Positions 25,558 to 62,301 of a stretch of 64,000 nt of DNA are shown here, in pieces. Origin of the DNA: an uncultured Gammaproteobacteria bacterium (lineage in GTDB: Bacteria; Patescibacteriota; Microgenomatia; CAZETR01; Amesbacteraceae); NCBI GenBank assembly GCA_964543035.1, contig CAZIVL010000001.1, positions 236,159 to 300,158 on the forward strand, written 5' to 3'. Under the pieces are notes generated by a model. It saw nothing but the letters and a program-made list of their open reading frames with translations. It made no database searches and was not told the DNA's origin. The translations under genes and the position numbers were made by a program. How positions within the stretch are numbered: the stretch's first letter is position 1; the number at the start of each line of letters is the position of its first letter.

Positions 25558-26418
25558 TCACAACCCGTTCCTCACAAGTTTTTGCAAAGCTTTTCGGTGG
25601 GCGCCGGACCACGGTCTAACTAGACATCCACCTATTAATACTATCCGAAGAATGTCTTTAGGAATCCAGCGTTTCCAGGATACAAACTCGCCCCAGATGG
25701 CCCCAAAGTTATCCGACTGACTGGCTCTTCCAATATGAGTTGCCTGGGCGGTTGGGGTATACCAAACTTCATATCCCATTTTTTTAATTCTATTTAGCCA
25801 TTCCACCTCTTCTCCATACATAAAAAATCCCTCATCAAAACCACGAGTTTTTTCAAATACCTCTTTTTTTAGAAGAATAAATGCCCCCATAACCCAATCA
25901 ACAAGTCTCGTATTTTCATATCTGGCTACATCTCGAATATGAATCGAATCAACAAATTTTCGAACAACCGGGAGGTTGTCAATAAAAAGCATCAGCTGAA
26001 GAACGCGTCTTAAGCTGGGAAAAAATCCCCAAGATGACTGGATAGATCCATCGGGGTTCAACAGTTTGCAGCCCAGGACATCTTTTTGTAAATCCAAACA
26101 CCTTTTGATAGTGTATGGATCCACAAAGCAGTCGCTGTTCAAAAGTAAGATATATTTTCCCAAAGCCCGACTCATCCCCAGATTGTTCCCTCTCGCAAAA
26201 CCCAAGTTCTCTTTTGACTCAATCAGTTTTACTTGAGGAAAGTGTTTCTTGATGATCTCCACCGATTCGTCTTTTGAGTCGTTATCTACCACAATCGTCT
26301 CAAAAAACACGTCTTTTGAGGTGTACAAATGCTCCAAACATTTTTGAGTGACTTTAGCCGTGTTATATGACAAAATGACCACAGATACGTCTATGTCAGC
26401 TCTCGATTTGTCCGTCAT
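25558..26418 (-). CDS. GT2 glycosyltransferase
   Basis: DVSVVILSYNTAKV...TIVVDNDSKDES...LNSDC...EEVEW. Confidence 0.75.
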   Translation of the reverse strand: MTDKSRADIDVSVVILSYNTAKVTQKCLEHLYTSKDVFFETIVVDNDSKDESVEIIKKHFPQVKLIESKENLGFARGNNLGMSRALGKYILLLNSDCFVDPYTIKRCLDLQKDVLGCKLLNPDGSIQSSWGFFPSLRRVLQLMLFIDNLPVVRKFVDSIHIRDVARYENTRLVDWVMGAFILLKKEVFEKTRGFDEGFFMYGEEVEWLNRIKKMGYEVWYTPTAQATHIGRASQSDNFGAIWGEFVSWKRWIPKDILRIVLIGGCLVRPWSGAHRKALQKLVRNGL

Positions 26419-27349
26419 CGTCCCAGTTTACAACGAAGCCGGTAGTGCAGTCGAGCTGGATAGCCAGCTCCAGACGGTTCTTTCAGAGTTAGATCTCAAA
26501 TCTGAGATCATTTATGTCAACGACGGCAGCACGGATTCCACCGCCCAGATTCTCCGCTCTCATGTAACAGATCTCAAGGATCACACTCCAGTGCATTTGA
26601 TTTCACTTACCCGAAACCAAGGTCAGACTGCGGCCATTAGCGCCGGCCTTGATGCCGCCAGTGGCAAGCTCATAGCCTTTTTAGATGGCGATCTCCAAAA
26701 TCACCCTAGCGATATTCCAAAGCTCATTGCCAGCCTAGATAAGGACACAGACGCTGTTTTTGGCTGGCGAAAGAACAGATCGGATAGACTCGACCGAGTA
26801 ATTGCCTCCCGGATTGCAAACTTTTTGACCGATATCCTGTTTTCCATAAATATCCGTGATCTGGGTTGCTCACTGCGCATTGTCCGTCGCGAGAGCCTCG
26901 AGGGTCTAAGGTTGTACGGTGAAAATCACCGCCTTCTCTCACTCCTTCTGGCTCTCCGGGGAGTTCGTTACAAGCAAATCGAAGTAGGCCATAGTCCAAG
27001 GATTCACGACCATTCAAAATATGGCTATTCTCGGGTCATCAAGCTGATAGTAGATCTTATTACCACCAAGTTCTTGCATTCCTACGCCACCAAACCAGCC
27101 TACATTTTTGGCACTTGGGGCCTTATCTGTTTGGGACTAGCCATCCCAGCTCTACTCCAAGTTATCTACAAGAAGCTGTTTTTAGGAGTCTATGTCCATC
27201 TCAATCCCATGTTCATTATCTTTATTTTCTTGAGTCTTGTAGGTGTTCAGCTAGTTTTGATGGGGCTTCTGGCTGAGCTTCTAGTTCGAGTTTACTTCGA
27301 GTCACGTCAAAAACCGATCTATGAAATTAACAAATCCGAAAAGCTCTAA
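26393..27349 (+). CDS. GT2 polyprenyl-phosphate sugar synthase (DPM1/GtrB-like) with C-terminal TM helices
   Basis: MSALDLSVIVPVYNEAGS...IIYVNDGSTDST...LDGDLQN, followed by two C-terminal TM helices. Start alternatives are 26375 (ATG) and 26408 (TTG). Every alternative overlaps the divergent 25558..26418 start codon. Confidence 0.7.
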   Translation: MSALDLSVIVPVYNEAGSAVELDSQLQTVLSELDLKSEIIYVNDGSTDSTAQILRSHVTDLKDHTPVHLISLTRNQGQTAAISAGLDAASGKLIAFLDGDLQNHPSDIPKLIASLDKDTDAVFGWRKNRSDRLDRVIASRIANFLTDILFSINIRDLGCSLRIVRRESLEGLRLYGENHRLLSLLLALRGVRYKQIEVGHSPRIHDHSKYGYSRVIKLIVDLITTKFLHSYATKPAYIFGTWGLICLGLAIPALLQVIYKKLFLGVYVHLNPMFIIFIFLSLVGVQLVLMGLLAELLVRVYFESRQKPIYEINKSEKL

Positions 27350-29188
27350 ATGTGTGGCATTACAGGAATAGTAGATTTTAAAAAGACTCAGATCCCCAAA
27401 AAAATCTTGTCTGGTATGAATGCCCAGATTGCTCACCGAGGTCCGGACTCTGACGGTTTTTATTATGATGATCACGTGGGGTTGGCCGCCAGAAGGCTCA
27501 GCATCATCGATCTCGTAACTGGAGACCAGCCCATCTTCAATGAGGATAAGTCGGTTGCAATCGTCTTCAATGGAGAAATTTACAATTATCAGTCACTTCA
27601 CGCTGGTCTCGCAAAATTAGGCCACAAATTCAAGACCAAGTCGGATACCGAGACTCTGGTTCACGCCTACGAAGAATATGGGTATGAAATGCTCTCAAAA
27701 TTAAACGGCATGTTTGCCTTTGCTATCTGGGATAAGAAAAAAGCCAAAGTATTTATAGGTCGCGATCACGCTGGCATCAAGCCTCTCTATTATTTTGTAA
27801 ATGGTCCCCAACTTATTTTTGGTTCCGAATTAAAAACTATTCTTGCCTTCCCAGGAGTCCCAAGACGTTTGAATTCCGAGAGCTTTGATCTTTACTCTTT
27901 CTTTGGATATATCCCGGGAAGCAAATCAATCTTTTCAGATATCCACAAGCTCCCAGCAGGTCACTATCTGACCTTTGATTCCACGGGTCTTCAGATCAAA
28001 AAATATTATGATCTCGAAAATCTAATTGCACCTGATACCCACGATCTTGACGTGCTTTTTGACAATTCCCTCAGGCTGCAGTCAATTGCCGATGTTCCTC
28101 TGGGAGTTCTTTTGAGTGGGGGAATAGATTCATCTCTGATTGCCTACTATCTGACTCGTCAAAAACACAATGTCAAAAGTTTCTCTATCTCATTTTCCGA
28201 AAGCTCATTTGATGAAAGTTCCTATGCGAGACTAATATCGAAACAGCTGGGAACAACTCATTTCGAAGAAGAATTTACATCCTCAAAAATGCTGGATATT
28301 TTTACAGACATTACCGAAAAAATGGATGAACCATTGGCAGATCCTTCCTTATTCCCCACTTACGCCGTGAGCAAATTAGCCAAAAAACATGTGAAAGTTG
28401 CACTATCAGGCGATGGTGGTGACGAATTGTTTGCAGGCTATCCTACATACCAAGGTCATTTTCTAGCAAGCCTCATTCCAAAGCTTCCAAGTTCAGTCAT
28501 TAGATCATTGGTTACGTCTCTCAAGCAGTTCAACTCTTCTACCCAAAATTATCCGACTCTCGAAGTGCTGTTAAACGGTATATCGGGATTAGACAAGAGC
28601 CCTATCGAGCGCCATCTAAACTGGATGAGCAATCAGTCATTAGGACTTACCAAAATAGGCAATTTACCTGCACTAATGCAAATACCTTTCGATCCAAAAC
28701 AGATGCTCAGATCTATCCTCAAGCTTGATTTTCAGACCTATCTAGAAGGGGATTTACTCGTCAAATCAGATCGGGCCTCCATGTTCAATTCACTAGAGCT
28801 CAGAGTGCCATTTTTGGATCAGGATATTATCAAATATGCTTACACGACCGACTCTTCTCACGCCGACTTTTTTACGACCAAAAAGCAGTTGCGATCACTT
28901 CTCTCCCAGAAACTCCCTTCTCAAATACTAGATAGGGGCAGTACTTTCATGGGTCTAAAACTTTTTCGCAAAAAAGGCTTTGGAATACCACTTTATAAGT
29001 GGATGACCACAGATCTCAGACCTCTAGTCGACCAGCATCTAGAGAATCCAGACCTAGATGATTTGTTTGATATGCCCACCGTAAACAGATTATGGCAGCG
29101 GACCTTGTCCAGGCTTGGAAACCACAGTAAACTGGTCTGGATGGTTGTAATGTTTTCTGCTTGGCACAAAAACTGGCTACGCTCATGA
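27350..29188 (+). CDS. asparagine synthase (glutamine-hydrolysing) family amidotransferase, AsnB-like
   Basis: MCGITGIV N-terminal nucleophile Cys2. GATase_7 region RGPDS...RRLSIIDL. Synthetase region SGGIDSS (PP-loop). 612 aa. The ATG immediately follows the upstream TAA. Confidence 0.85.
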   Translation: MCGITGIVDFKKTQIPKKILSGMNAQIAHRGPDSDGFYYDDHVGLAARRLSIIDLVTGDQPIFNEDKSVAIVFNGEIYNYQSLHAGLAKLGHKFKTKSDTETLVHAYEEYGYEMLSKLNGMFAFAIWDKKKAKVFIGRDHAGIKPLYYFVNGPQLIFGSELKTILAFPGVPRRLNSESFDLYSFFGYIPGSKSIFSDIHKLPAGHYLTFDSTGLQIKKYYDLENLIAPDTHDLDVLFDNSLRLQSIADVPLGVLLSGGIDSSLIAYYLTRQKHNVKSFSISFSESSFDESSYARLISKQLGTTHFEEEFTSSKMLDIFTDITEKMDEPLADPSLFPTYAVSKLAKKHVKVALSGDGGDELFAGYPTYQGHFLASLIPKLPSSVIRSLVTSLKQFNSSTQNYPTLEVLLNGISGLDKSPIERHLNWMSNQSLGLTKIGNLPALMQIPFDPKQMLRSILKLDFQTYLEGDLLVKSDRASMFNSLELRVPFLDQDIIKYAYTTDSSHADFFTTKKQLRSLLSQKLPSQILDRGSTFMGLKLFRKKGFGIPLYKWMTTDLRPLVDQHLENPDLDDLFDMPTVNRLWQRTLSRLGNHSKLVWMVVMFSAWHKNWLRS

Positions 29189-33838: not shown

Positions 33839-35415
33839 TTCTCATCTTGATTTTAGCAGCTGGGTTACGCACCGTCGGGCTTTCCTCGCATCCGCCTGGG
33901 TTTACACCAGACGAAGCTGGCCTAGGCTACAATGCCTATTCGCTACTTCTTACGGGTCGAGATGAATGGGGAACGGTCTGGTGGCAGCTCCCAGTTACAA
34001 ATCTTCAATCATTTGGAGATTATAAGTTGCCACTATATTCATTCTTGGCAGTTCCCACCATCAAGATATTTGGCCTCAATGAATTTGCCGTCCGGCTCCC
34101 AAATGCCATTTTGGGAACCTTATCGATTCTAGCCGTGTTCCTGTTGGGTTCTCGCATCGGAGGTTCTCGCATCGGACTTTTGTCTGCCACTCTTATGGCT
34201 ATTTCACCATGGTCAATCCAAATGTCCAGAGGAGCGTTCGAGGCGAATCTCGTCTCTCTTTTTGTTCCTCTAGCAATTTATGCATATTTGTCTTCTCGTT
34301 TTATTCAGTCAGCTATTTTTTTTGTTTTAGGAGTTTATACTTACCATTCCGCCAAGATCCTTACCCCTTTGATATTGGTTGCGCTGTTTGTTTACAAACC
34401 AACCAAAAAAATTGCCTTTTTTATGATACTGGGTGTGTTATTGATACCTGCTTTGATTTCTCAAATTGGCCTTGGGGGGAGCAGGTCGTCTGACCTTCTT
34501 ATTTTTAAACCCACCGACAATTGGGAGTATGTGTCTGCCCGCAGGTTTGCAGCCCGTAGTTTCGGAGTTCCGGATACAATCGCCAGGGTATTTTCAAACA
34601 AACTTACCTATGTCGCCACCACTTGGTTTGAGAACTATGCGTCATACCTATCTCCCCAATTTTTATTTACAAATGGTCCATCCGAGGGCACCTACGGCAT
34701 GCTGAGAGGAAGGGGAGTCCTCTATAGATTAGACCTGATCGCAATTTGTATATTCGTAGCTATTTTGATAAAAAATCCCACTCGAAAAAATATTTTATTG
34801 ACGACCCTCATTTTTTTAAGTTTCTTGCCTGCTTCTTTGACCAAAGGAGCGGGATTGGCCGCAAATCGGACAGTCATCGCTTTACCTTTCATTGCGATCG
34901 CGTTGGCGATTGGAGTAGGCAAGTTATCTATGGCACTAAAACCAGCCATTTATATCGTCATGGCTCTATACTGCTTGAGCTTGGTATATTTTGCTTACGA
35001 TTACGTCTATTTTGCAAAGACTAACATGGGCCAAGACATGCACATAGGCAAAAAAGAGTTGTTTGAAAGAACTATGCCCATAGCAGCCGGTTTCAACCAA
35101 ATAAAATTTAGTCGTACTCTTTCCAATCCCCATATTTTCTTTGCCTTTTTCACAGCGACTCCACCCACAGAATACCAAAAAGCAATCGCTCCCTATAAGA
35201 ATCTGAAAAATCATGGAGTAAATTTTGTAGATCAACTGTCCGACTACTCAATTGGCAAATATCATTTTGGTGACTCCCTTGTGGAAAAACCAGTTTCCCA
35301 GCCGACCTTGTTTGTAGGCAAGCCAGATCAATTTGATTCTATATCAGGAGAGTATTTTCATATTGATTATCCCAATGGCACCGAAGCTTACCGAGTTGTA
35401 GAAAAAAAGCCATGA
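33820..35415 (+). CDS. PMT_2/GT39-like GT-C membrane glycosyltransferase
   Basis: TPDEAGLGYNAYSLLLTGRDEWG...SFGDYKLPLY. Contains the 15-nt tandem duplication (GSRIGGSRIG). Confidence 0.8.
   Translation: MAKTILVLILILAAGLRTVGLSSHPPGFTPDEAGLGYNAYSLLLTGRDEWGTVWWQLPVTNLQSFGDYKLPLYSFLAVPTIKIFGLNEFAVRLPNAILGTLSILAVFLLGSRIGGSRIGLLSATLMAISPWSIQMSRGAFEANLVSLFVPLAIYAYLSSRFIQSAIFFVLGVYTYHSAKILTPLILVALFVYKPTKKIAFFMILGVLLIPALISQIGLGGSRSSDLLIFKPTDNWEYVSARRFAARSFGVPDTIARVFSNKLTYVATTWFENYASYLSPQFLFTNGPSEGTYGMLRGRGVLYRLDLIAICIFVAILIKNPTRKNILLTTLIFLSFLPASLTKGAGLAANRTVIALPFIAIALAIGVGKLSMALKPAIYIVMALYCLSLVYFAYDYVYFAKTNMGQDMHIGKKELFERTMPIAAGFNQIKFSRTLSNPHIFFAFFTATPPTEYQKAIAPYKNLKNHGVNFVDQLSDYSIGKYHFGDSLVEKPVSQPTLFVGKPDQFDSISGEYFHIDYPNGTEAYRVVEKKP
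34147..34176 (+). repeat. perfect 15-nt tandem duplication (ggttctcgcatcgga x2) inside the 33820 CDS
   Basis: Direct read of the sequence. In-frame, producing GSRIG-GSRIG in the first periplasmic loop or TM boundary. Confidence 0.8.
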
Positions 35416-37031
35416 AAAAATTTATAGTCCTTGTTTTACTTCTGTCCTTGCCCACGTTCGGCCTCATGCTCAGGCCTGGCATCTTCACAATGCATGATTT
35501 TCATCCATTCAGACTTTTTGAGTTTAATAAATGTATACAAGATGGGATTTTTCCTTGTAGGTGGGCACCCGATGCCGAAAATGGCTATGGAGAGCCCTTG
35601 TTCAATTTTTATGGTCAATTTCCGTACTGGGTAGGGGAGTTATTTGTGCTTTCGGGCTTTGGAATTCTCACTTCCATCAAGATTACATTTATTCTTACTC
35701 TTGTCTTATCCGGATTGGCCATGTATTGGGTGGCATCCAGATATTCAAATTACAAACTCGGCCTACTCGCCTCGCTTTTGTATGTATACGCGCCCTACCG
35801 AGCAGTAGACGTCTGGGTTCGAGGGGCTTTGGGAGAGGCTTTCGCATTTATTCTTTATCCTCTGATTTTTTATTTCTTGGACCAAGCCATCACTGTCCGG
35901 AAATCCAAATACTTTATTCTATTGGCTGTCTTCGTGGCCCTACTCATTATCACGCACAACCTTTCATTCGTGATGTTTGGTCTGGCATTGGGAGCCTGGA
36001 CAATATTCCGCATGATTTCTACTAGGAGTTGGATTGCTATCCCCAATCTATTCTTGTCCGGGATCCTGGCATTACTTTTATCCTCCTTCTATTTATTGCC
36101 AGTTGCCGTGGAGACGTCGCTTATCTCTTTGCAAAGCGCCACCACCGAAGGCTATTACAATTACCAGTTACATTACACGAGTCTTAAGCAGCTTTTTTGG
36201 TCCAGATTTTGGGGCTATGGGGCGTCAGTTTGGAGTGATGGCGACGGCATGAGTTTTTCTGCCGGCCAAATTCAGGCCACAGTATTAGGGGCAGCCCTAA
36301 TCGCCTCCATCATAAGAAGAAATCAGAAAGGTGTGATTCTTTCTCTTTTGGGTGTGCTTTGTTTGTTTATGACCCACGGCAAATCAGAGATTATCTGGAA
36401 ACTCTTGCCCCCTCTGACTTATATTCAGTTTCCCTGGCGTTTTCTGGCTCCCGCCGCCTTCTTCTCTACTCTGGCAGCAGCTACTTCTTTTCATGGTCTT
36501 CGCATCCCCAAAACAATCTTGGCTACAGTCATTATTCTTGTAATTATGACCAATGTAGATTTTTTCCGCCCCGATATCTGGCATGTAACAGACGATGTCA
36601 CATTTTTTTCCGGAAAAAATATGGAATATCAGATGCAAGCCCACAAAGACTTCTGGCCAAAGACGGCAGGTCCTCCTCCTCAATCTCTAGCTCCTACTGA
36701 GGCAGAATTTACTCAAGGATCAGGTATCGTGAAGCAGATCTCAAAAAGATCAGCTTCCATGGTATACGATATCAATATATTTAATGGGCCTTCTACGGTC
36801 GTTTTTCCCGTCGTGTTTTTTCCGGGATGGACTAGTCTTGTAGACGGTGTACAGCAACCAGTATATCCAGATCCCAGTACCGGACATATGGCGATTGATC
36901 TACCAGCAGGGGAGTGGACCGTCGAGCTAAAATTTATAGATACCTGGCCTAGGACGCTTGGCAATGTCATAAGTGCCGGAGCCTTGCTAGGCGTGATCAG
37001 CTTTGTAATTCTAAAGTATGAAAAAAAATAA
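35412..37031 (+). CDS. YfhO-like polytopic membrane protein (GT-C-like), short-form family B (paralog of 7683..9395)
   Basis: MHDFHP...CRWAPDAENGYGEPLFNFY. C-terminal FFPGWTSLVDG. ATGA overlap at the start. Confidence 0.6.
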   Translation: MKKFIVLVLLLSLPTFGLMLRPGIFTMHDFHPFRLFEFNKCIQDGIFPCRWAPDAENGYGEPLFNFYGQFPYWVGELFVLSGFGILTSIKITFILTLVLSGLAMYWVASRYSNYKLGLLASLLYVYAPYRAVDVWVRGALGEAFAFILYPLIFYFLDQAITVRKSKYFILLAVFVALLIITHNLSFVMFGLALGAWTIFRMISTRSWIAIPNLFLSGILALLLSSFYLLPVAVETSLISLQSATTEGYYNYQLHYTSLKQLFWSRFWGYGASVWSDGDGMSFSAGQIQATVLGAALIASIIRRNQKGVILSLLGVLCLFMTHGKSEIIWKLLPPLTYIQFPWRFLAPAAFFSTLAAATSFHGLRIPKTILATVIILVIMTNVDFFRPDIWHVTDDVTFFSGKNMEYQMQAHKDFWPKTAGPPPQSLAPTEAEFTQGSGIVKQISKRSASMVYDINIFNGPSTVVFPVVFFPGWTSLVDGVQQPVYPDPSTGHMAIDLPAGEWTVELKFIDTWPRTLGNVISAGALLGVISFVILKYEKK

Positions 37032-44735: not shown

Positions 44736-45515
44736 ATGAAGCCCTATCTATCTGTGGTTTTACCAGCATACAAACAAGAAAAACATATTGTAAAAAATGT
44801 GAGAAGGCTCAAAGAAGTCTTAGAAAAGTTAAATGTAACCTATGAAATAATTAGTGTTTCAGATGGACGTTTAGACAAAACTCAGTCTAATCTAAAAAAA
44901 GCAAAGATGCGAAATGTTATTTCAACAGGTTATGAGCAAAACAGAGGAAAAGGACAAGCAGTGAGGTTTGGTATGGCAATGGCTAGAGGAAAAATAGTTG
45001 GCTTTGTCGATTCAGGTGATCTTGATTACTCAGTTATTCCATTATTATTTGAGCATATGAAATGGTACGAAGCAGACGTGATTCTTGCTTCAAAGAGACA
45101 TCCTGCATCCAAAGTCAGTTATCCTTGGCAAAGAAGAATAATTTCATGGGTATATCAGATTATGGTAAAAATTATGTTCGGGCTAAATCTTAAAGACACA
45201 CAAGTCGGAATGAAGTTTTTTAAGAAAGAAGTTATTGAAAAAGTGCTCCCCAGAATTTTAGTAAAGGAATTTGCTTTCGACATAGAGATGTTAGCCGTCG
45301 CGAATTATCTAGGTTTCAAGAGAATTTACGAGGCTCCAGTAAAATTGTCTCTTGATTTTAACAAAGCCTCATCTGTCATCTCAAAAGGATTCGTACGTAC
45401 AGTTTTTCGCATGATTTGGGATACAATATCTGTATTCTACAGATTAAGGATTCGAAGATACTATGACGATGCAAACAAAAAAAATTGGCAACCCAATATG
45501 TATCTAGAATGGTAA
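44736..45515 (+). CDS. GT2 glycosyltransferase
   Basis: LSVVLPAYKQEKHI...EIISVSDGRLDKT...FVDSGD. Confidence 0.7.
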   Translation: MKPYLSVVLPAYKQEKHIVKNVRRLKEVLEKLNVTYEIISVSDGRLDKTQSNLKKAKMRNVISTGYEQNRGKGQAVRFGMAMARGKIVGFVDSGDLDYSVIPLLFEHMKWYEADVILASKRHPASKVSYPWQRRIISWVYQIMVKIMFGLNLKDTQVGMKFFKKEVIEKVLPRILVKEFAFDIEMLAVANYLGFKRIYEAPVKLSLDFNKASSVISKGFVRTVFRMIWDTISVFYRLRIRRYYDDANKKNWQPNMYLEW

Positions 45516-51272: not shown

Positions 51273-52112
51273 ATGACAGATCGTCAAAATCAAAAATTAG
51301 AGCAACTTCTTGCCAACACCGGGGACATCGCTCTAAAAAGAAGAGCTCGAAGGATAATTCAAGAAATTGACCCAAAGCCAGGAGACAAGATTCTTGATGT
51401 TGGATGTGGCGATGGATATTATTTGTATTTGTTGTCAAATTTGGGTGTGCGTCTTTCCTTGGTAGGTACGGATTTGGATTCGGCAGGGATGGCCAGTGGT
51501 AAGAAAAATCTTAAAGGAAAACGTATTCGCTTTATTGAAGCAGATCTTATGAAGCCACTTCCATTCAAAAAGAATTACTTTGACAAAGTTGTCATGTCTG
51601 AAGTAGCAGAACACTTGCCCAACGACCTTACCGGTCTGAAAAATGTTCAAAAGAGTCTAAAACCTGGTGGAGTTCTCTGTCTTTCCGTGCCAAACAAAAA
51701 TTATCCCTTGCTCTGGGACCCGGTCAATTGGTTTCTAGAAAGAATTACCGGAAGACACATTGTTTCTGGTTTTTGGGCTGGTCTTTGGAATCAGCATTTA
51801 CGGTTATACACACCCATTCAAATAAGTGATGTTGTCAGGCGAGCAGGTTTTAAAATTTCTTGTCTTGAAAGTCTTACTTTTTGGTCTTTGCCCTTCAATC
51901 ACAATCTCATAAACTTTGGGGCCAGAAGGTTACATGGAGGAGCTCTGTCAAAAGCAGATTCAGACGCCATAAATAAGTTTAAACCCGCAAAAAGCAGGCC
52001 GTGGTACATAGAATTATTTTTTAGGGTATCTCAAGCAATAGACAGCCTGAATGATATTTGGACACCTAGCCCAGATTGGGGTGTGGGTGTATTTATCAAG
52101 GCAATAAAATGA
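51273..52112 (+). CDS. class I SAM-dependent methyltransferase
   Basis: ILDVGCGDGYY (motif I) ... VVMSEVAEHL. The ATG directly follows the upstream TAA. Confidence 0.75.
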   Translation: MTDRQNQKLEQLLANTGDIALKRRARRIIQEIDPKPGDKILDVGCGDGYYLYLLSNLGVRLSLVGTDLDSAGMASGKKNLKGKRIRFIEADLMKPLPFKKNYFDKVVMSEVAEHLPNDLTGLKNVQKSLKPGGVLCLSVPNKNYPLLWDPVNWFLERITGRHIVSGFWAGLWNQHLRLYTPIQISDVVRRAGFKISCLESLTFWSLPFNHNLINFGARRLHGGALSKADSDAINKFKPAKSRPWYIELFFRVSQAIDSLNDIWTPSPDWGVGVFIKAIK

Positions 52113-52833
52113 TAAGAACATCATTATCAGTAATTCTTCCCGCCTACAATGAAGAGGAAAACATCTCGTTCATAATTAAAAACGTCGAGGAATATCTAAA
52201 AAAAAAATTAAGGATTTTGAAATAATTGTTGTTGATGACGGCAGCACGGACAATACATCTGTCAAAGTAAAAAAACTTATATCTAGTAGATCGTATCTTC
52301 GTCTGATTAGCTATACTCCAAATAAGGGCTATGGTCATGCACTGCGAACAGGTTTTTTAAGTGCAAGAAAATCATTAGTGTTCTACACAGATTCTGATAG
52401 TCAATTTGATATTTCTGATTTAGACATTGTCCTGCCGATGGCCAATTATTACGATATTGTGGCCGGATACAGGCTAAATCGACAAGATCCATTGATGCGG
52501 ATATTTATAGCATTCGTCTACAATCGTTTAATAAAATTAACATTAGGCTTGTCTATCAGAGACGTCGATTGTTCTTTTAAAATATATAATCGAAAAGTAT
52601 TTGAGTCAATTACAATGACCTCTGATACTGGTCTAATAGATGCGGAGGTTTTAATCAAAGCGAAAAAAAAAGGGTTTTCTATAACGCAAGTAGGAGTGCG
52701 TCATTTTCCGAGAGTAAGGGGAAAAACAATGTACGAAGTAGGACAAAGAAATCACTTTTTTGCATTTGTCCGTCCTCAAGTTATTATTGATTTACTTTAC
52801 GAAATATTTAAGCTAAAAAAGGAAGTTTTATGA
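52109..52833 (+). pseudogene. GT2 polyprenyl-phosphate sugar synthase (DPM1/GtrB-like) disrupted by a frameshift in an A10 homopolymer (52198-52207)
   Basis: Frame 0 from ATG 52109 reads MIRTSLSVILPAYNEEENISFIIKNVEEYLKKK and then stops at 52223. Frame +2 is open from 52180 and reads ...KKKIKDFEIIVVDDGSTDNT...YTDSDSQFD...CSFKIY to 52833. One extra A (A11) would restore YLKKKIKDFEIIVVDDGS. The ORF track lists only the 3' fragment (52378..52833). Confidence 0.7.
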
Positions 52834-53804
52834 AAAAGTTTTCCTTAGTTTCAATTATTGTTCCTCTTTACGTAATAGAGAAAAGATTTTTTATTGATTT
52901 GCATCGATTTGCCAGTCTTGATTATCCAAATTTTGAAATACTAATAGTTACTGACAAAAAAGTAGTGTTTCCAAAAATTAAAAAACTTAATATACGTCTA
53001 ATTATCACTGGACACACAAAAACAGGTCCTGCAGAAAAAAGAGATATAGCAATTGCAAAGGCCAGAGGAGAAATCTGTGCATTTATTGATGACGATGCTT
53101 ACCCAAGACCCGATTGGCTGTCGAGAGCAATGCTTATTATGAACAAATATAAAGTGTCTGCAGTCTGTGGGCCTGGTGTTACTCCTCCAGAAGATGATTA
53201 TTGGAGGCAAATGACAGGAATCGTATATAGTTCATTTTTCTGTGGGGGCCATGCTCAATACAGATTTGTACAACAATCCGCTCGGTATGTGTATGATTAT
53301 CCTGCCTATAATTTGTTGGTTAGAACGAAAGCGCTAAAATCAGTAGGAGGATATGGAAATCATTTTTACGGGGGTGAAGACACATTTTTGTGTCTTAAGC
53401 TAATTCGTCTTGGTCACCAGATTCGTTACGATCCATCAATTGTAGTATTTCATCACAGAAGACCTTTATACATAAGTTATCTAAAGCAAATTGCAAATAT
53501 TGGTTTACATAGAGGATACTTTGCCAGAGTCTTTAAGAAGACTTCGGCCTATCCTGGGTATTTTCTTCCATCCGTTCTTTTTTTAGGTCTTAGCGCTCTA
53601 ATAATTACCTCTTTTTTTATTGAAATGTCACGAATCACACTTGCAATTTTATTTCCTACAATGTTGCTACTTGCCATGATAAGCGTGATAAAAAAGACCT
53701 CTATTTTAAACTCGTTTATTGTGGCCTGGGGAATTATATTTACTCACGTTGCCTATGGGGCAAGTTTTATTAGAGGCTACCTTACTTCAAAACTAATCCA
53801 CTAG
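52830..53804 (+). CDS. GT2 glycosyltransferase with C-terminal TM helices
   Basis: ATGA overlap. VSIIVPLY...ILIVTDKK...FIDDDAYP. Two or three C-terminal TM helices. Confidence 0.7.
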   Translation: MKKFSLVSIIVPLYVIEKRFFIDLHRFASLDYPNFEILIVTDKKVVFPKIKKLNIRLIITGHTKTGPAEKRDIAIAKARGEICAFIDDDAYPRPDWLSRAMLIMNKYKVSAVCGPGVTPPEDDYWRQMTGIVYSSFFCGGHAQYRFVQQSARYVYDYPAYNLLVRTKALKSVGGYGNHFYGGEDTFLCLKLIRLGHQIRYDPSIVVFHHRRPLYISYLKQIANIGLHRGYFARVFKKTSAYPGYFLPSVLFLGLSALIITSFFIEMSRITLAILFPTMLLLAMISVIKKTSILNSFIVAWGIIFTHVAYGASFIRGYLTSKLIH

Positions 53805-54832
53805 ATACTCAGCATTTTCCTAATCATTCTTATGCCTGTTGGATTTGTCATAGACTTGATTACCAGCAAATCAGTAAGCACAAGAGCAGTTATTGGTTCC
53901 CACAAATAAGCACTATCGCGATGTCTTACAGACAGATAAATTGATTTAATCAATTCTGGAACAAATAAATTGGCGTATATTATCCAATACACAATTTTTA
54001 ACAAATCCTGACTATTGTCAGTCCTAAACCACACAAACCGTTTGCGTTCCAAAGTAGAAAAGAAATTTCCTTCAAGGTTTCTAAGTCTCTTTTTTATAAA
54101 ATGAACAAAGTTAGACGCGTGATAATGCCTAATTTTGGCATCAGGCACAAATGCGTAAAATTGGTGTCCTTCTTCAACCATTATTTGCAATGAGTCAAGG
54201 TCATAAAAAGCAACGTCGTTCTTAATACTAGTGCTTAAAAGAAGTTTTCTTCTGTACATAATACGTCCTGAAGGAGGGACCTTGTGAGGTTCAAAACGAC
54301 ATAAAAAATAAGTCTCTTTGTCATCTACAATAGTTTCTTCAATGTCAGTCGAAAAAAATTTTAATACAGGGTCTCGTTGGGTATTGTCATATGATAGATA
54401 TCTCAAAAATGAGCTACTTTCCTTGGGCAGTCCATCTATTGCATACTCTCTTGTCAGAGAGCCAGTTATTGTGGGGTTCTGAACCAGGGGAGCAACAAGT
54501 TTCTTTAAAAAATCTTTATCGCATATTTCCATATCGGCGTCCATCCAATACACAAGGTCACCTTTGGCCATATGTAACCCAAGCCCTTTGTTGTATTCGG
54601 TTCGATAATACACTGGATGAGTTATTTTGCTTCTATCGATTGTTATCACCTTAGCGCCAAACTCTCGCAATAGTTGAGGAGAGTTATCAGTAGATTCGTC
54701 ATCTACAGCAATGTATTCAATCTTTTTTTTTGGATACGATTGTGCGGTAAGCGATGGCAATAATCTTGATAAATTAGTCGACTCGTTAAAAACAAAAAAG
54801 AGTATGGAAATGGTGGGGTATTGGACGGTCAC
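53801..54832 (-). CDS. GT2 glycosyltransferase
   Basis: ISILFFVFNESTNLSRLLPSL...EYIAVDDESTDNS...WMDADME. Confidence 0.7.
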   Translation of the reverse strand: MTVQYPTISILFFVFNESTNLSRLLPSLTAQSYPKKKIEYIAVDDESTDNSPQLLREFGAKVITIDRSKITHPVYYRTEYNKGLGLHMAKGDLVYWMDADMEICDKDFLKKLVAPLVQNPTITGSLTREYAIDGLPKESSSFLRYLSYDNTQRDPVLKFFSTDIEETIVDDKETYFLCRFEPHKVPPSGRIMYRRKLLLSTSIKNDVAFYDLDSLQIMVEEGHQFYAFVPDAKIRHYHASNFVHFIKKRLRNLEGNFFSTLERKRFVWFRTDNSQDLLKIVYWIIYANLFVPELIKSIYLSVRHRDSAYLWEPITALVLTDLLVIKSMTNPTGIRMIRKMLSI

Positions 54833-55695
54833 AGAAACTTTCTTATCAAAGTGCGAATTTTTTGAGATACCTTTGAAGTAATTAAAGGATACAATATTTT
54901 ATTTCTCAGTTCTCCTGGTCTAGCTTTAAACAAAGTGTTGTGAAACTCTTCGTCTTCTCCGGGAGCTGGTGCGTTGCTGTAATAATAAGCCGCCAACGAT
55001 TTACGAGTTACCCCATCGGGAAGGTCCATTTTTGCATAGCCATGATGACTATATTTGTCTGTCGCAAAGATCAGACATCTATTAAAAATCGGTGCAACAC
55101 TTTTTTCACACTTTGTCATGTCTTTGTCCCACATTTCCAAATTTCCTCCATATTTACTTTTCCAATTTTTGTTTAGATAGATCAAAATATTTAATCGGCG
55201 ATACTTTCCTGTCACTGGGTGTTTGTTAAAATCCGCGTGTATATCCAAAAAACTTCCTGACGAACCTTGGTGAAGGCCGCCACCCGCCAGATCCTGATCA
55301 GGTAGGACAGGATCAATGCCAGAAATACTAGCCACAATTTTTCGAAATTCTGGACTCATAAGCTCACGAAATACTTGCCTAAATATTGGAGACATTTTTG
55401 TAGTGTCTGAAAGTTGATTTTTTTTCTCTGCCACCCCGCTAAAAGCACTGCTCATCTGCATTTGGGCCACCGTAGGAAACTCCAAATACATTTTTTCTGA
55501 GGCTCTTTTTTTAAAAAAATTCTCAATTACTAAATGAGGGTAGGGTTTAGCATTTTTAAATGACTTTGAATATTTACTTAAGTTAGCTTTGATATTTTTT
55601 AGATTTATTGCACTTTCCATTTGAAAAATTATACTACGATTCGTTTTTTTGGGCCATAACATGAATTTGAATCCAACCTTTGCCCCTGTGCTCAC
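54829..55695 (-). CDS. 2OG-Fe(II) oxygenase, prolyl-4-hydroxylase-like (start uncertain; ATGs at 55695, 55662, 55620)
   Basis: HQGSSGSFLDIHAD (HxD), a second His in SHHGY, and RKS (RxS 2-oxoglutarate-binding motif). N-terminal PYPHLVIENFF typical of P4H-like 2OG oxygenases. Confidence 0.65.
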   Translation of the reverse strand: MSTGAKVGFKFMLWPKKTNRSIIFQMESAINLKNIKANLSKYSKSFKNAKPYPHLVIENFFKKRASEKMYLEFPTVAQMQMSSAFSGVAEKKNQLSDTTKMSPIFRQVFRELMSPEFRKIVASISGIDPVLPDQDLAGGGLHQGSSGSFLDIHADFNKHPVTGKYRRLNILIYLNKNWKSKYGGNLEMWDKDMTKCEKSVAPIFNRCLIFATDKYSHHGYAKMDLPDGVTRKSLAAYYYSNAPAPGEDEEFHNTLFKARPGELRNKILYPLITSKVSQKIRTLIRKFL

Positions 55696-56320
55696 TTTCT
55701 ACTTTGTCTTTTAAAAATAAAATTTCGCCTCTTTGGCCCAAAAAATGTTTTCGTATCAAGCTCAATATGTCTGCTACAAATGTCCAGATACCTCCAGAAT
55801 ATACTATGTCTTTTATTTCAAAACCTGATTTGACAAGAAAGTCTCTAATTTTTGCTTCAGAGTAATGTCTGTGACCTAAAAACCACCACGCTGGGTCTCC
55901 CAAGACACACAACAAGTTGTCGGTAACTGTAGATAAGCAAAAAATTCCCTTAGGAGATAGTACTCTCCATACCTCTTTCAGCGCCAAAAGCTCACTATTT
56001 TTTGGCAAGTGCTCAATCACATCCCACATAGTTACTACTTGAAATTTATGGTTATCAAACGGCAAACTTAAAGCAGATCCTACGACGAAATTTCCAATTT
56101 TTCGTGTCTTGGCATACTTTACAGCCTGTTCATTTGGATCAATTCCCCATACCTGTTTTGCGCCCTTGCTTATACAAGATAGCCACTGGCCTGTCCAACA
56201 CCCAATGTCTAGTACAGTTTTTCCTTTGACAATTTTTTGTGTAATTCTCGCTTCAAAACGGTGATGCAAGGACGGTAAGACATCATACAAAAAATTTACC
56301 CGCCTATCTTCCCTAATCAT
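55634..56320 (-). CDS. class I SAM-dependent methyltransferase
   Basis: VLDIGCWTGQW (motif I) ... VVTMWDVIEHL. Confidence 0.7.
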   Translation of the reverse strand: MIREDRRVNFLYDVLPSLHHRFEARITQKIVKGKTVLDIGCWTGQWLSCISKGAKQVWGIDPNEQAVKYAKTRKIGNFVVGSALSLPFDNHKFQVVTMWDVIEHLPKNSELLALKEVWRVLSPKGIFCLSTVTDNLLCVLGDPAWWFLGHRHYSEAKIRDFLVKSGFEIKDIVYSGGIWTFVADILSLIRKHFLGQRGEILFLKDKVESEHRGKGWIQIHVMAQKNES

Positions 56321-59666: not shown

Positions 59667-60592
59667 ACACATTATCAAAATGCCGTGTATGTGACTCAAA
59701 AGAAGTCGCGCTTGTATGCAAATTTAAGGAATTAGATTATTTTAGGTGCAGAAATTGTGACCTCGTGTTTCTGAATAATCCGCCTTCCTCAAAATTCTAC
59801 AAAGAGCTCTATTCCTACTCAGCATCAAAAATGACTGACCCTGAGAGACATAACCCCTTGCTAAATATTGTTATGAGTCTCCCTTTTTCATCAATCTTTT
59901 TAAATTACATGGGAAAAGGAATTGACCAGCTTAGAGCGAGCGCTGTGTGTGATCTCTCGATCAAGAAGTCTGTTCTCGATATAGGCTGTGGAGGTGGCAA
60001 CTTTATTGCTGGCCTTGAATCTCTTGGTTGGAAAGTGGCGGGCACCGAAATGGGTAGGCATCTAGTAGAAGCATCCTCTACAAAATTAAAATCAGGTAAA
60101 GTATACATGGGAAAAGTAGATCAGATAAATTTCAAAGCCAATAAGTTTGGAGTAGTCACACTTTGGCATGTATTTGAGCATATTTTTGAAATTGGACCCA
60201 CATTAAAATCAATATCAAAAATTATTGATAAGTCGGGTACCTTAGTGATAGAGGTGCCTCATTCAAACTCACTCAACTTTAGGGTCTTTAACAAACACTG
60301 GTCACTTCTTATGCCCCCTCAGCATCTTCATTTCTGGTCCAAAAAGTCTTTTGCCACATATCTAAAAAAATTTGGATTTAGAGTATCAAATGTAGAATAC
60401 CCTCTTCATTTTCCGTTTGTCTTCTCATCTAGTCTAATAAAAGTATCACCACTTCTTATTATTTTTTTGCCTTTATGGATTCCATTATCAATTACGATGA
60501 CGCTTATTATGTCATTTCTTCGCCAGGGAGACGTAATTCGTATTTATGCAGTTTTAGATTTTGACAAGAGAAAACTTCCGATGGCCATGTAG
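59663..60592 (+). CDS. class I SAM-dependent methyltransferase with N-terminal C4 zinc-ribbon
   Basis: ATGA overlap at 59663-59666. CRVCDSKEV...CRNCDLVF (CxxC...CxxC), then VLDIGCGGGNF (motif I). Hydrophobic C-terminal tail. Confidence 0.7.
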   Translation: MNTLSKCRVCDSKEVALVCKFKELDYFRCRNCDLVFLNNPPSSKFYKELYSYSASKMTDPERHNPLLNIVMSLPFSSIFLNYMGKGIDQLRASAVCDLSIKKSVLDIGCGGGNFIAGLESLGWKVAGTEMGRHLVEASSTKLKSGKVYMGKVDQINFKANKFGVVTLWHVFEHIFEIGPTLKSISKIIDKSGTLVIEVPHSNSLNFRVFNKHWSLLMPPQHLHFWSKKSFATYLKKFGFRVSNVEYPLHFPFVFSSSLIKVSPLLIIFLPLWIPLSITMTLIMSFLRQGDVIRIYAVLDFDKRKLPMAM

Positions 60593-62301
60593 TCCAGTCC
60601 TGTGTCATAAAAACATTTTATTGCTTCTTCTGGATTTCCCACAATTGGTTGACCTCTGATATTAAAAGAAGTGTTTAGTATTACTGGAACTTTGGTCAAT
60701 TTCCCAAACTCTTCTACTAGTTTGTAATACATGGGATTGTGTTTAAGTGAAATCCTTTGAGGTCTAGCAGTTCCATCTACATGAACGACAGCAGGAATTT
60801 CTTTGGCCCTTTTTTCAGGAACATCAAATGAAATAATCATAAAATCAGGTTTAGGGGTAGGAGACTCAAGATACATCTCCACTCCTTTATCTGTCATCGA
60901 GGGACAAAACGGTCTAAATGGCTCTCGATATTTTACCCTTGAGTTAATTATATCCTTGTTCTCGGCCTTTCGAGGGTCCATAAGGATTGATCTGTTGCCT
61001 AGCGCTCTCGGACCTGATTCCATCTTTCCTTGAAACCAGCCTACAATTTTTCCTTTTGCAAGAAGCGATGCCGTGTCTTTAATTAACTTAGAAGTACTTG
61101 TGTACTTTGTGTATTTTATTTGTCTTGTCTTGAGGGCGGATTCAATCTCAGCATCAGAAAATTCCGTGCCCCAATATGCGTGCTCAATCTTACGGCCAGG
61201 TACTTTTCGAGGAGCAGGATAATTATGATACGCCCACAATGCCGCTCCTACCCCAAGTCCTCCATCCCCAGCATCGGGAAAAACATACATATCCTCCAAA
61301 AGACCTGCTTCCCAAATTCTCTGATTCATCTTTACATTCAAAAAGACTCCTCCGCCCGCGGCCAGCTTTTTTACACCAAGCTTTTTAATCCATGGCAACA
61401 AGAAGTTTAACATCTGCTCTTCCAGGACCCTCTGCGCTTCAGCCGCAATATCTTCTCTGCCATATCTATCAACTAGTTTTTTTACTTGCTCACTCTGGGG
61501 GTAATGCCAATGATCAACTCCATTAGCGTGCCAGCTCGAATACGCACCGAAGTTATATGGTTTAACTAGCTTGCCATCTTTATATTTCGGAACAATGTCG
61601 TCTAGTAGTCCACGAGTTTTTGTGGTCTTTCCATAAGGGGCCAGGCCCATCACTTTTCCTTCACCTTCGTTTATTTGCCAGCCTAGAGCCTCTGTCACAA
61701 TACTGTAAAAAAATCCCAACGATCCAGATCTCCCTATTTTTAACACTGGAGTCAATTCGCCATTCTCGCCAATCCACAAAGTTTGTGATAAAGCATATCC
61801 ACTTCCATCCGATGTCACAACTAAACATCTGTCTTTAAAACCCGATCCATAATACGCAGCGGCAGCGTGTGAAAGATGATGACTTACTTGAATGACCTTG
61901 GCGTCTTTTGATAATAAGTATTTCTTCTGATAAATAGGAAATTCCTGTTTTGAAAAAATTTTAGCCTTGTTAACTAAATTGTGTAAATTGCGTACCACAA
62001 AATCTACATAGTAGTCGACCTGATTTGGGAAGTCTTTTTCAATTTCCAACACTTCTGTCTCGGGGTTACCAAACAACATTCTTATTTCTGGAATCTCAGT
62101 TAGCTCTGGTACCACAACCAAATCCAAGTCTTTAGAAGAAATACCAGTAGTCTTCAAACACGTCTCAAGAGATTTCACTGGCAAGGATACACAATGTTTA
62201 ATGTTTACCAGTCTTTCTTCTTGGATATTAAAAGAAACTTTTCCGTCCTGAACAAGAGCCACACTAGAATCGTGTCCTCGGTGAATTCCTAATATATTCA
62301 T
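60544..62301 (-). CDS. carbamoyltransferase, NodU/CmcH/TobZ family
   Basis: 585 aa. N-terminal MNILGIHRGHDSSVALV (Kae1/HypF-like carbamoyltransferase N domain) and a C-terminal YrdC-like region. Its 3' end overlaps the convergent methyltransferase gene by 49 nt. Confidence 0.8.
   Translation of the reverse strand: MNILGIHRGHDSSVALVQDGKVSFNIQEERLVNIKHCVSLPVKSLETCLKTTGISSKDLDLVVVPELTEIPEIRMLFGNPETEVLEIEKDFPNQVDYYVDFVVRNLHNLVNKAKIFSKQEFPIYQKKYLLSKDAKVIQVSHHLSHAAAAYYGSGFKDRCLVVTSDGSGYALSQTLWIGENGELTPVLKIGRSGSLGFFYSIVTEALGWQINEGEGKVMGLAPYGKTTKTRGLLDDIVPKYKDGKLVKPYNFGAYSSWHANGVDHWHYPQSEQVKKLVDRYGREDIAAEAQRVLEEQMLNFLLPWIKKLGVKKLAAGGGVFLNVKMNQRIWEAGLLEDMYVFPDAGDGGLGVGAALWAYHNYPAPRKVPGRKIEHAYWGTEFSDAEIESALKTRQIKYTKYTSTSKLIKDTASLLAKGKIVGWFQGKMESGPRALGNRSILMDPRKAENKDIINSRVKYREPFRPFCPSMTDKGVEMYLESPTPKPDFMIISFDVPEKRAKEIPAVVHVDGTARPQRISLKHNPMYYKLVEEFGKLTKVPVILNTSFNIRGQPIVGNPEEAIKCFYDTGLDYMAIGSFLLSKSKTA

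Follow-up and report, generated by a model that had tools for sequence, protein, structure and literature searches.

The 64-kb window, by which is meant the whole stretch of DNA analysed, carries a GT2 gene that starts at ATG 52109-52111 and is divided between two reading frames at a run of 10 A residues (A10), the longest homopolymer of the window at 52198-52207. Around this tract frame 0 reads GAA TAT CTA AAA AAA AAA TTA AGG ATT TTG AAA TAA. It had been predicted originally that two overlapping frames meet at this run, and both the coordinates and the frames were confirmed. The start codon overlaps the stop codon of the preceding methyltransferase gene (TGA 52110-52112) in an ATGA junction, and a second such junction links the gene to another GT2 gene downstream (Table 1). 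Both junctions were intact, in agreement with the description of the locus as a tightly packed operon with ATGA on both sides. The downstream GT2 gene carries an AAGGAAG of its own 5-11 nt ahead of its start; with A10 it loses its translational coupling to the interrupted gene.

Table 1. Features at and around the interrupted GT2 gene, in window coordinates.
Feature	Position	Strand	Remarks
Class-I SAM methyltransferase gene	51273..52112	+	279 aa; last gene of the conserved operon core
GT2 gene, 5' part, frame 0	52109..52225	+	Encodes MIRTSLSVILPAYNEEENISFIIKNVEEYLKKK and 5 out-of-frame codons, then TAA 52223-52225; 38 aa
Both frames open	52180..52222	+	43 nt; -1 frame open from 52180, frame-0 stop at 52223
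GAGGA, Shine-Dalgarno-like pentamer (Glu-Glu codons)	52187..52191	+	Direct sequence reading
A10 homopolymer, frameshift site	52198..52207	+	Exactly 10 nt; codons 30-34 of 241
GT2 gene, 3' part, -1 frame	52207..52833	+	ATT AAG GAT TTT.. (IKDFEIIVVDDGSTD..) to TGA 52831-52833; 208 codons
Second long tract of the GT2 gene, A9	52663..52671	+	In frame: GCG AAA AAA AAA GGG = AKKKG
9-nt runs in frame	A9 1341-1349, A9 52663-52671, T9 54723-54731		
Downstream GT2 gene	52830..53804	+	324 aa; ATG 52830 overlaps TGA 52831-52833, the second ATGA junction

As in contingency genes, the length of a homopolymer within the coding region decides the frame. With A11 or A8 the GT2 gene is in frame and with A9, A10 or A12 it is out of frame, A9 or A12 at this site giving a stop after 33-34 codons. 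Addition of one A yields a 241-aa protein with the normal stop; in tblastn this joined protein matched two frames at 100% identity, one with residues 1-29 and the second with residues 31-241, and the junction peptides of the joined product are ..EEYLKKKIKDFEIIVVDDGSTDNTSVK.., (K)IKDFEIIVVDDGSTDNTSVK and NVEEYLK. Because the two frames overlap around the tract, any shift to the -1 frame inside the overlap gives the full-length product. Re-initiation in the productive frame was rejected, as no ATG, GTG or TTG precedes GTG 52378 (residue 91), and a start at this codon would cost half of the GT-A domain. The series TTG TTG TTG ATG downstream of the premature stop lies in frame 0, not in the productive frame.

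The joined gene models as an ArnC/DPMS/GtrB-like polyprenyl-phosphate glycosyltransferase. The joined protein matched PF00535 (GT2) with E=2.8e-24 over profile positions 1-167 of 168, and it aligned without a gap across the junction with 18 homologues (consensus ..KYLKKxFxxYEIIVV..); this gap-free junction is far beyond chance. The A11 version has the exact length of the family, and the A8 version is one residue short. At the 45 columns that were at least 95% conserved among 119 homologues there were 0 deviations, D95-x-D97, D48 and other family-invariant residues were retained, and no stop occurred within the 208 downstream codons of this gene of 33.7% GC. Perfect conservation of the gene equally fits a functional A11 gene, in which case A10 would be an artefact, or a programmed recoding site.

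ArnC, GtrB and DPMS were also the best PDB sequence matches. The AF2 model of the joined protein had a pLDDT of 88 and a pTM of 0.86, and the top Foldseek matches were ArnC (TMq 0.79), PfDPMS (0.77) and GtrB (0.70), with ranks 1-21 all occupied by these three (TMq 0.61-0.79, 197-250 alignment columns). The alignment, fold and profile matches agree with the original prediction that A11 gives one 241-aa DPM1-like protein. ArnC, GtrB, DPMS and DPM1 share the same GT-A fold and DxD motif, followed by interface helices. ArnC, GtrB and PfDPMS, however, are of ~310-370 aa with C-terminal transmembrane helices, which are absent here: the protein stops after 241 residues, and the chains of the matched structures have 301-355. 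Polyprenyl-phosphate glycosyltransferases without transmembrane helices exist, for example human DPM1, and their lack therefore does not exclude the activity. A specific enzyme identity such as ArnC is not supported: the protein fell far below every NCBIfam equivalog cut-off, all 22 of 22 matches being below threshold (the best was ArnC NF007986, with 80 bits against a cut-off of 529). Enzymes of this class load a sugar onto a lipid carrier that serves GT-C enzymes as donor, and the product may supply sugar donors to the neighbouring GT-C enzymes.

The gene is probably accessory: although the glycan operon is otherwise conserved, the slot that it occupies is low in GC, lineage-specific and not syntenic. 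The operon core has the conserved order GT4-SDR-GT2-GT4-methyltransferase and is 45-62% identical to Hainich groundwater contigs, in which the methyltransferase is followed by unrelated genes in this slot. None of the loci of the closest homologues (P0002, P0003 and P0014) was syntenic, and the GC content of the gene places it in the lowest 1% of 725-nt windows. The neighbourhood is rich in GT-C genes, with at least 12 encoded alongside the GT2 gene, and other ArnC/GtrB/DPM1-like GT2 genes lie in the window at 4645-5394, 5401-6153, 26348-27349 and 44736-45515. The closest paralogue in the window is 34% identical, so the gene has no recent duplicate there. Promoter- and terminator-like sites occurred at chance level only.

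Tract length was compared in relatives. At the homologous site ~80 distinct loci had no conserved tract: apart from a distant GT2 with an in-frame A10, the A run never exceeded 8 nt, and the site was frameshifted in 0 of the ~80 loci. No intact allele of at least 90% identity was present among 5.8 billion protein clusters, where the best full-length relative was at most 66% identical; in a scan of genome contigs the nearest homologous locus was 55% identical, and a DNA pattern with tract lengths of 7-14 gave 0 matches in JGI metagenome contigs. When exact copies of the 151-aa and 38-aa products were sought, two Logan contigs alone matched, both with A10. A single population was sampled (two runs with identical DNA), and its nearest relatives, at most 66% identical, are without the tract and the frameshift.

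In length, frequency and conservation the tract did not exceed what would be predicted from composition and codon usage. AAA accounts for 71% of Lys codons. In synonymous shuffles, coding-strand tracts of at least 11 A were expected 0.5 times per window against 1 observed (P=0.41), and tracts of at least 9 A 3.8 times against 4 observed; the genome has a GC content of 41%, with no unusual abundance of long A tracts. A run of A11 at this site is expected by chance from KKK and codon usage. The original prediction had also placed long A-tracts at the first codons of many GT-C genes. Tracts are indeed found at ~6-8 gene starts, but they are of 7-8 nt and encode MKK.. rather than MKKK.., and such tracts are ordinary for membrane-protein N-termini.

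RNA polymerase can slip on A or T runs once these reach 9 nt (PMC5009743, PMC4256274), and transcription insertions cluster in A/T runs, rising exponentially with run length (PMC5574713). In the A11 tract of Citrobacter rodentium tssM1 an added A restores the frame in ~20-25% of cases (PMC4256274), and poly(A) frameshifts in Blochmannia and Buchnera are rescued by transcriptional slippage with ~30% full-length transcripts (summarized in PMC3017870). The A10 tract exceeds 9 nt and one added A restores its frame. Heptamers of the dnaX type (A_AAA_AAA) are also present in frame 0 at 52198-52204 and 52201-52207, with a GAGG core 7 and 10 nt upstream. The presence of this GAGGA is not taken as evidence of a frameshift stimulator. 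Folding of the downstream sequence for a stem-loop or pseudoknot was no better than in shuffles (z = -0.02 and +0.20), no Rfam frameshift element matched at the GT2 locus, and the slippery site was not conserved among the homologues at the ~80 loci. A tract of 10 A suffices for slippage by RNA polymerase or for -1 slippage by the ribosome, so the 'OFF' state may be leaky, a possibility beyond the three alternatives originally offered, and it is probably rescued in part by one or other process.

Homopolymer error was one of the explanations originally offered for the interruption. The genome would then truly be A11 and the gene intact, with the homopolymer under-called by one base; length errors rise with run length, A10 is the longest run of the window, and the GT2 gene is without any other defect. 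However, A10 with 100% identical flanks was recovered in Logan contigs from runs SRR16481186 (92.6 kb) and SRR16481187 (3.1 kb), and the deposited contig had 0 mismatches over 3.1-5.5 kb to these two assemblies, which derive from separate runs and a different assembler; the three assemblies, perhaps from one population or sample series, exclude random assembly error but not systematic platform bias. No contig break was seen at the tract, and the window's remaining A/T runs of 7-9 nt (~100, three of them of 9 nt) all lie within uninterrupted ORFs, so the data are not generally noisy at homopolymers. No other split genes were found in the window, and the ORF pairs 12401/12778, 23103/23792 and 32101/33158 were rejected as candidates, being separate genes. 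With the same A10 in two independent assemblies and the ~100 runs uninterrupted, a consensus error is unlikely; A10 is most likely the true consensus of the sampled population, and we hold an artefact to be quite improbable. An old pseudogene, or a decaying redundant paralogue no longer used, is scarcely credible. The other ArnC/GtrB/DPM1-like GT2 genes of the window could supply donors, and the gene does occupy a variable slot of low GC. Against this reading, the closest paralogue is too distant to be a recent duplicate, a search for further downstream inactivating mutations, as in a simple pseudogene, found none in the GT2 gene, 0 of the 45 conserved columns are changed, 208 codons remain open in a gene of 34% GC, and the ATGA junctions are intact on both sides. 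These data largely refute an 'old' pseudogene, and they uphold the original view that the gene is unlikely to be long dead. A gene rescued by transcriptional slippage would be expected to stay under purifying selection with no further lesion, in line with the 0 of 45 changed columns and the frame open to the normal stop, but a very recent mutation would look no different.

An intact gene with an early tract (within the first 34 of 241 codons) would also be expected of an evolved contingency locus, in which selection keeps an A11/A10 ON/OFF switch of one lipid-linked sugar donor. Surface-glycan glycosyltransferases are a classic phase-variable class (background in PMC9176279 and PMC2831843), the gene sits within a variable cassette of the glycan locus, and with translational coupling lost the downstream GT2 might be expressed less as well. 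We consider such a locus unlikely, and it is equally doubtful that the population uses it to vary one branch of a surface glycan, be it in defence against phage, in attachment to hosts or otherwise. All three of the three assemblies have A10, and at the consensus level no tract-length polymorphism was found among the window and two Logan assemblies, the protein clusters (no intact allele among 5.8 billion) and the JGI contigs (no variant). The tract is absent from homologues, its length is fully explained by KKK and codon usage, and there is no family of such tracts interrupting other genes in the window. The phase-variable switch of the original prediction is conceivable, but with no length variant, an unconserved tract and no codon-usage excess it gained no positive support. 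A literature search, judged mostly by title, found no report of a homopolymer-switched CPR glycosyltransferase. It is improbable that A10/A11 works as a stochastic switch, or as a 'dimmer' set by slippage, for a lipid-linked sugar donor of this Patescibacteria/Microgenomates-type bacterium, varying one branch of the surface glycans made by its many neighbouring GT-C enzymes. Programmed recoding would make the out-of-frame A10 the selected normal state, a fixed full-length fraction being produced by slippage or dnaX-like -1 frameshifting. The two in-frame heptamers with GAGG(A) 7 and 10 nt upstream, the frame-0 stop 5 codons downstream, a run long enough (at least 9 A) for RNA-polymerase slippage and the intact GT2 gene are all compatible with it. 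Yet the tract and frameshift occur in no homologue, neither downstream RNA structure (z -0.02 and +0.20) nor an Rfam match was found, no function is plausible for the 38-aa product of frame 0 and GAGGA is simply two Glu codons. We regard programmed recoding as very unlikely, and there is correspondingly little likelihood that it sets a low expression level or gives two products.

The account that we favour, with moderate confidence, is that slippage recently shortened A11 to A10 in an accessory gene, which would be OFF at the DNA level, revertible and probably leaky. One A would have been lost by a slipped-strand event from an ancestral A11 (CT-A AAA AAA AAA A-TT, Leu-Lys-Lys-Lys-Ile), leaving at the DNA level a 38-aa product and no start codon able to rescue the catalytic domain. 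As the tract is 10 A long, three routes could restore the frame: RNA polymerase might slip backward and add one A to the mRNA, the ribosome might slip by -1 on either in-frame A_AAA_AAA heptamer, or replication slippage might return the tract to A11. From these routes we infer a young, incidental, leaky and reversible knock-down, neither an evolved switch nor a dead gene.

If the frameshift is real and leaky, the gene should not be discarded as a pseudogene in annotation. The product would feed lipid-linked sugar to some of the at least 12 GT-C enzymes, so the state of the gene changes the predicted surface glycan; the glycan affected is that of the cell surface of an uncultured, ultrasmall bacterium of groundwater type, and CPR surfaces mediate host attachment and phage exposure. 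If the reads held a mixture of A10 and A11, the locus would offer an inexpensive first opportunity to test whether CPR bacteria vary the glycosylation of their surfaces by phase variation, and a switch, if true, would give the Candidate Phyla Radiation its first described case of surface glycosylation phase-varied through a homopolymer. At present there is one slippage frameshift, unreplicated and of a kind that is well known; nothing shows an evolved on/off switch, and the frameshift is real but ordinary.

The locus can be compared with several known systems. In phase-variable glycosyltransferases of Campylobacter, Neisseria, Haemophilus, Helicobacter and Pasteurella a 5' homopolymer sets ON or OFF, as here (for example PMC9176279 and PMC2831843). 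Such loci have tract-length polymorphism within and between strains, which was not found for the GT2 tract, and there are usually many tracts per genome, often of poly-G/C and longer than chance, which is not so here. The -1 frameshifting of dnaX likewise uses an A-rich heptamer (A_AAA_AAG in dnaX, A_AAA_AAA here) with an SD-like GAGG 7-10 nt upstream. In dnaX a hairpin lies downstream, whereas the GT2 site is without stem-loop, conservation or Rfam match, and the shifted product of dnaX is the short one, whereas here the -1 frame is the productive one.

In tssM1, as in the GT2 gene, a poly-A run stands just before a premature stop, and an added A restores the full-length product with no RNA structure needed (PMC4256274). 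Both tssM1 products are functional, their ratio matters and a second species has the slippery site (PMC4256274); in contrast, the 38-aa short product here is almost certainly useless. Several of the endosymbiont frameshifts are shared by different populations and species, and their mRNA heterogeneity has been measured (PMC3017870), whereas the present case concerns one gene in the DNA of one population, with no conservation, in a genome of 41% GC with no excess of long A tracts. The poly(A) genes of Buchnera and Blochmannia resemble it in that one base has been inserted or deleted within an A run of ~10-11 nt of a gene that is otherwise intact, and in both settings the genome is small and AT-leaning and the frame would be restored if RNA polymerase put in an extra A.

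Direct reading of the frames agreed with the original prediction on the two frames, the A10 tract and the ATGA junctions at both ends of the gene. The ATG of the interrupted GT2 gene (52109) shares an ATGA with the stop codon of the upstream methyltransferase gene, and frame 0 (...GAA TAT CTA AAA AAA AAA TTA AGG ATT TTG AAA TAA) terminates at 52223-52225 to give a 38-codon product. The -1 frame stays open between 52180 and a TGA at 52831-52833, which shares a second ATGA with the ATG of the following GT2 gene. The tract (52198-52207) is the longest homopolymer in the 64 kb window. One additional A generates a protein of 241 aa and the removal of two a protein of 240 aa; A9 or A12 leads to a near-immediate stop (CTA AAA AAA AAT TAA). 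The single 241-aa protein anticipated for an 11-A tract was borne out: residues 1-29 and 31-241 were matched by tblastn in one frame and the other, both at 100% identity, and the A11 version aligned with 18 homologues without a gap over the junction (consensus KYLKKxFxxYEIIVV). This gap-free alignment suggests that the ancestral tract was A11-equivalent (CTA AAA AAA AAA ATT) and has since become one A shorter. The first start codon in the productive (-1) frame is found only at residue 91, which leaves no route to a truncated enzyme. The gene contains a second long tract, an in-frame A9 at 52663-52671 (AKKKG), and both of the KKK tripeptides encoded entirely by AAA, from a total of six in the window genes, are located within it.

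The joined protein matched the Pfam model Glycos_transf_2 across its whole length (E=2.8e-24), and its closest solved relatives by sequence were, in order, ArnC, chondroitin synthase (N-terminal GT2 domain only), GtrB (sll0501) and Pyrococcus DPMS. The top NCBIfam matches were ArnC, dolichyl-phosphate hexose transferase and PgfS, all far under the equivalog cut-offs. An AlphaFold2 model (pLDDT 88) was structurally most similar to ArnC (TMq 0.79), DPMS (0.77) and GtrB (0.70), with other GT2 enzymes ranking lower; the C-terminal transmembrane helices of these three are missing from the protein. It was filed as a predicted short polyprenyl-phosphate glycosyltransferase, the matches assigning no donor sugar, and the earlier label of Und-P-sugar synthase holds at that level. 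The surroundings fit this identity, as nearly the entire 64 kb window (104-62301) is one glycan-assembly island with at least 12 genes above the cut-offs of GT-C-type Pfam families (PMT_2/PMT, YfhO, GT-C_AftD), about five weaker matches, four to five ArnC/GtrB/DPM1-like GT2 genes, several GT2 and GT4 genes and methyltransferases. Homologues were named from Patescibacteria/Microgenomates, e.g. Levybacteria and Woesebacteria. A 570-aa ORF (7683-9395) had no Pfam match; its full-length identity to a YfhO/PTPS_related-like 539-aa protein (35412-37031) is 33%, which makes it a diverged paralogue of a GT-C-like membrane protein.

Features of the glycan island and of the region around the interrupted GT2 gene (window coordinates)
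Feature	Position	Strand	Details
Wzx-like flippase	9362-10819		
AsnB, asparagine synthase	27350-29188		
GT4	47308		upstream of interrupted GT2
SDR	48404		upstream of interrupted GT2
GT2	49159		upstream of interrupted GT2
GT4	50121		upstream of interrupted GT2
Methyltransferase	51273		upstream of interrupted GT2
Blocks collinear with Hainich contigs L125/L126	47308-52112 and 56347-58308		L125/L126 1-4349 and 7131-7849; 31-62% identity
Convergent three-gene unit	53801-56320	minus	GT2 343 aa, 2OG-Fe(II) oxygenase 288 aa, methyltransferase 228 aa
Carbamoyltransferase	60544-62301	minus	

The core from GT4 to methyltransferase, together with an AftD-like GT-C gene further downstream, is collinear with Hainich groundwater contigs (45-62% protein identity for the core). 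In these relatives, unrelated genes fill the slot directly after the methyltransferase (a GT2-GT4 fusion of 678 aa, a GT4-methyltransferase of 558 aa, or a GT4), and the nearest homologues of the interrupted gene reside in quite different gene neighbourhoods. Its GC content (33.7%) is the lowest of the region and ranks in the bottom 1% among windows of 725 nt; the four following genes (52830-56320) range from 36 to 39%, against a window mean of 41.2%. The unrelated slot genes, non-syntenic homologues and low GC therefore mark the interrupted gene as accessory and its cassette as variable, and 52109-56320 was possibly acquired. Variable cassettes are common places for gene gain, loss and inactivation. 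The convergent unit is placed between the interrupted operon and the AftD-like gene, and the presence of an oxygenase among glycan genes is a hint of a modified sugar.

The tract was originally proposed to be a phase-variable switch, a homopolymer error or the mark of a decaying paralogue. It does set the frame, yet an evolved ON/OFF switch is unlikely, as four tests lent it no support. All known copies of the locus are A10; no intact allele was found in a set of 5.8 billion protein clusters and no tract-length variant in JGI metagenome contigs. When tract length was compared in relatives, as had been suggested, none of ~80 distinct homologous loci was frameshifted and the A run was 8 nt or shorter in all but one. 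The exception, a distant GT2 on metagenome contig L117 (31% identity by tblastn), has an in-frame A10 (ATT AAA AAA AAA ATT AAG GAT) that encodes the same IKKKIKD peptide; a long A tract at the site is therefore able to stay in frame. AAA accounts for 71% of Lys codons, and in 500 synonymous shuffles of the window genes the expected numbers of coding-strand A tracts were close to those observed (A>=11, 1 observed and 0.5 expected; A>=9, 4 and 3.8). Tract length is a chance outcome of KKK and flanking codons, and the window holds no further gene with a break at a tract. Across all long ORFs, T runs on the coding strand were strongly depleted relative to shuffles (T>=8, 5 observed and 15.4 expected; T>=9, 0 and 5.0) and A runs were not (A>=8, 18 and 14.3), A7 being enriched (62 and 40.8); avoidance of U-tract termination, avoidance of slippage and codon-pair effects are possibilities for the T runs.

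For A10 to be a sequencing artefact, the longest tract alone would have to be systematically called one base short, and this is improbable. Two Logan contigs encode the 151-aa downstream product. They come from independent assemblies of separate runs, one of SRR16481186 (92.6 kb) and the other of SRR16481187 (3.1 kb), and match the window at 100% identity over 5.5 kb and 3.1 kb respectively; both carry A10, and no contig breaks at the tract. The ~100 other A/T runs of 7-9 nt all lie within uninterrupted ORFs, and overlapping ORF pairs checked as possible split genes were separate genes, therefore the window data are not generally noisy at homopolymers. Programmed -1 frameshifting is very improbable: the site holds two in-frame A_AAA_AAA heptamers and an upstream GAGGA (GAGG core 7 and 10 nt away), but there is no significant downstream RNA structure (z = -0.02 and +0.20), no Rfam match and no conservation of the site among homologous loci. 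An old pseudogene is hardly credible. No deviation was found at 45 columns conserved in at least 95% of 119 homologues (other family members average 0.9), the 208 codons downstream of the tract are free of stops in a gene of 34% GC, and both ATGA junctions are intact; no further inactivating mutation thus accompanies A10. The nearest paralogue within the window is only 34% identical, which argues against a decaying paralogue. There is no sign of decay, and the lesion appears to be young or tolerated.

On balance, these data favour, with some reservation, a genuine and recent slipped-strand deletion from A11 to A10 with a leaky, reversible knock-down. The gene would be OFF at the DNA level, yielding the 38-aa product. 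Because the frame-0 stop lies ~600 nt ahead of the next gene, ribosomes would halt that far short of the 324-aa GT2 and translational coupling would be lost; the 324-aa GT2 has its own upstream AAGGAAG. Bacterial RNA polymerase slips on runs of 10 A, and rescue of the frame would need exactly one additional A in the mRNA. A -1 ribosomal slip on A_AAA_AAA would give an identical protein, and replication slippage may restore A11. Given these three routes, a leaky and reversible state would be expected, not a null. mRNAs with extra bases arise from runs of 9 A or T (PMC5009743), and transcript insertions cluster in A/T runs, rising exponentially with run length (PMC5574713).

Among the few papers in the literature searched that mention both the Candidate Phyla Radiation and phase variation, none deals by its title with a homopolymer-switched glycosyltransferase, and one describes a hypervariable repeat protein instead of such a switch, so a demonstrated A10/A11 mixture would be mildly novel for this group. 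The A10 locus is a further case of a well-known type of event in which a glycosyltransferase gene is frameshifted at a homopolymer. It differs from contingency loci in polymorphism, tract excess and conservation, the defining features tested, and from dnaX-type sites in structure and conservation. The closest mechanistic precedents are the frameshifted poly(A) genes of the endosymbionts Blochmannia and Buchnera, with ~30% full-length transcripts (PMC3017870), and tssM1 of C. rodentium, where A added at an A11 tract restores the frame in ~20-25% (PMC4256274).
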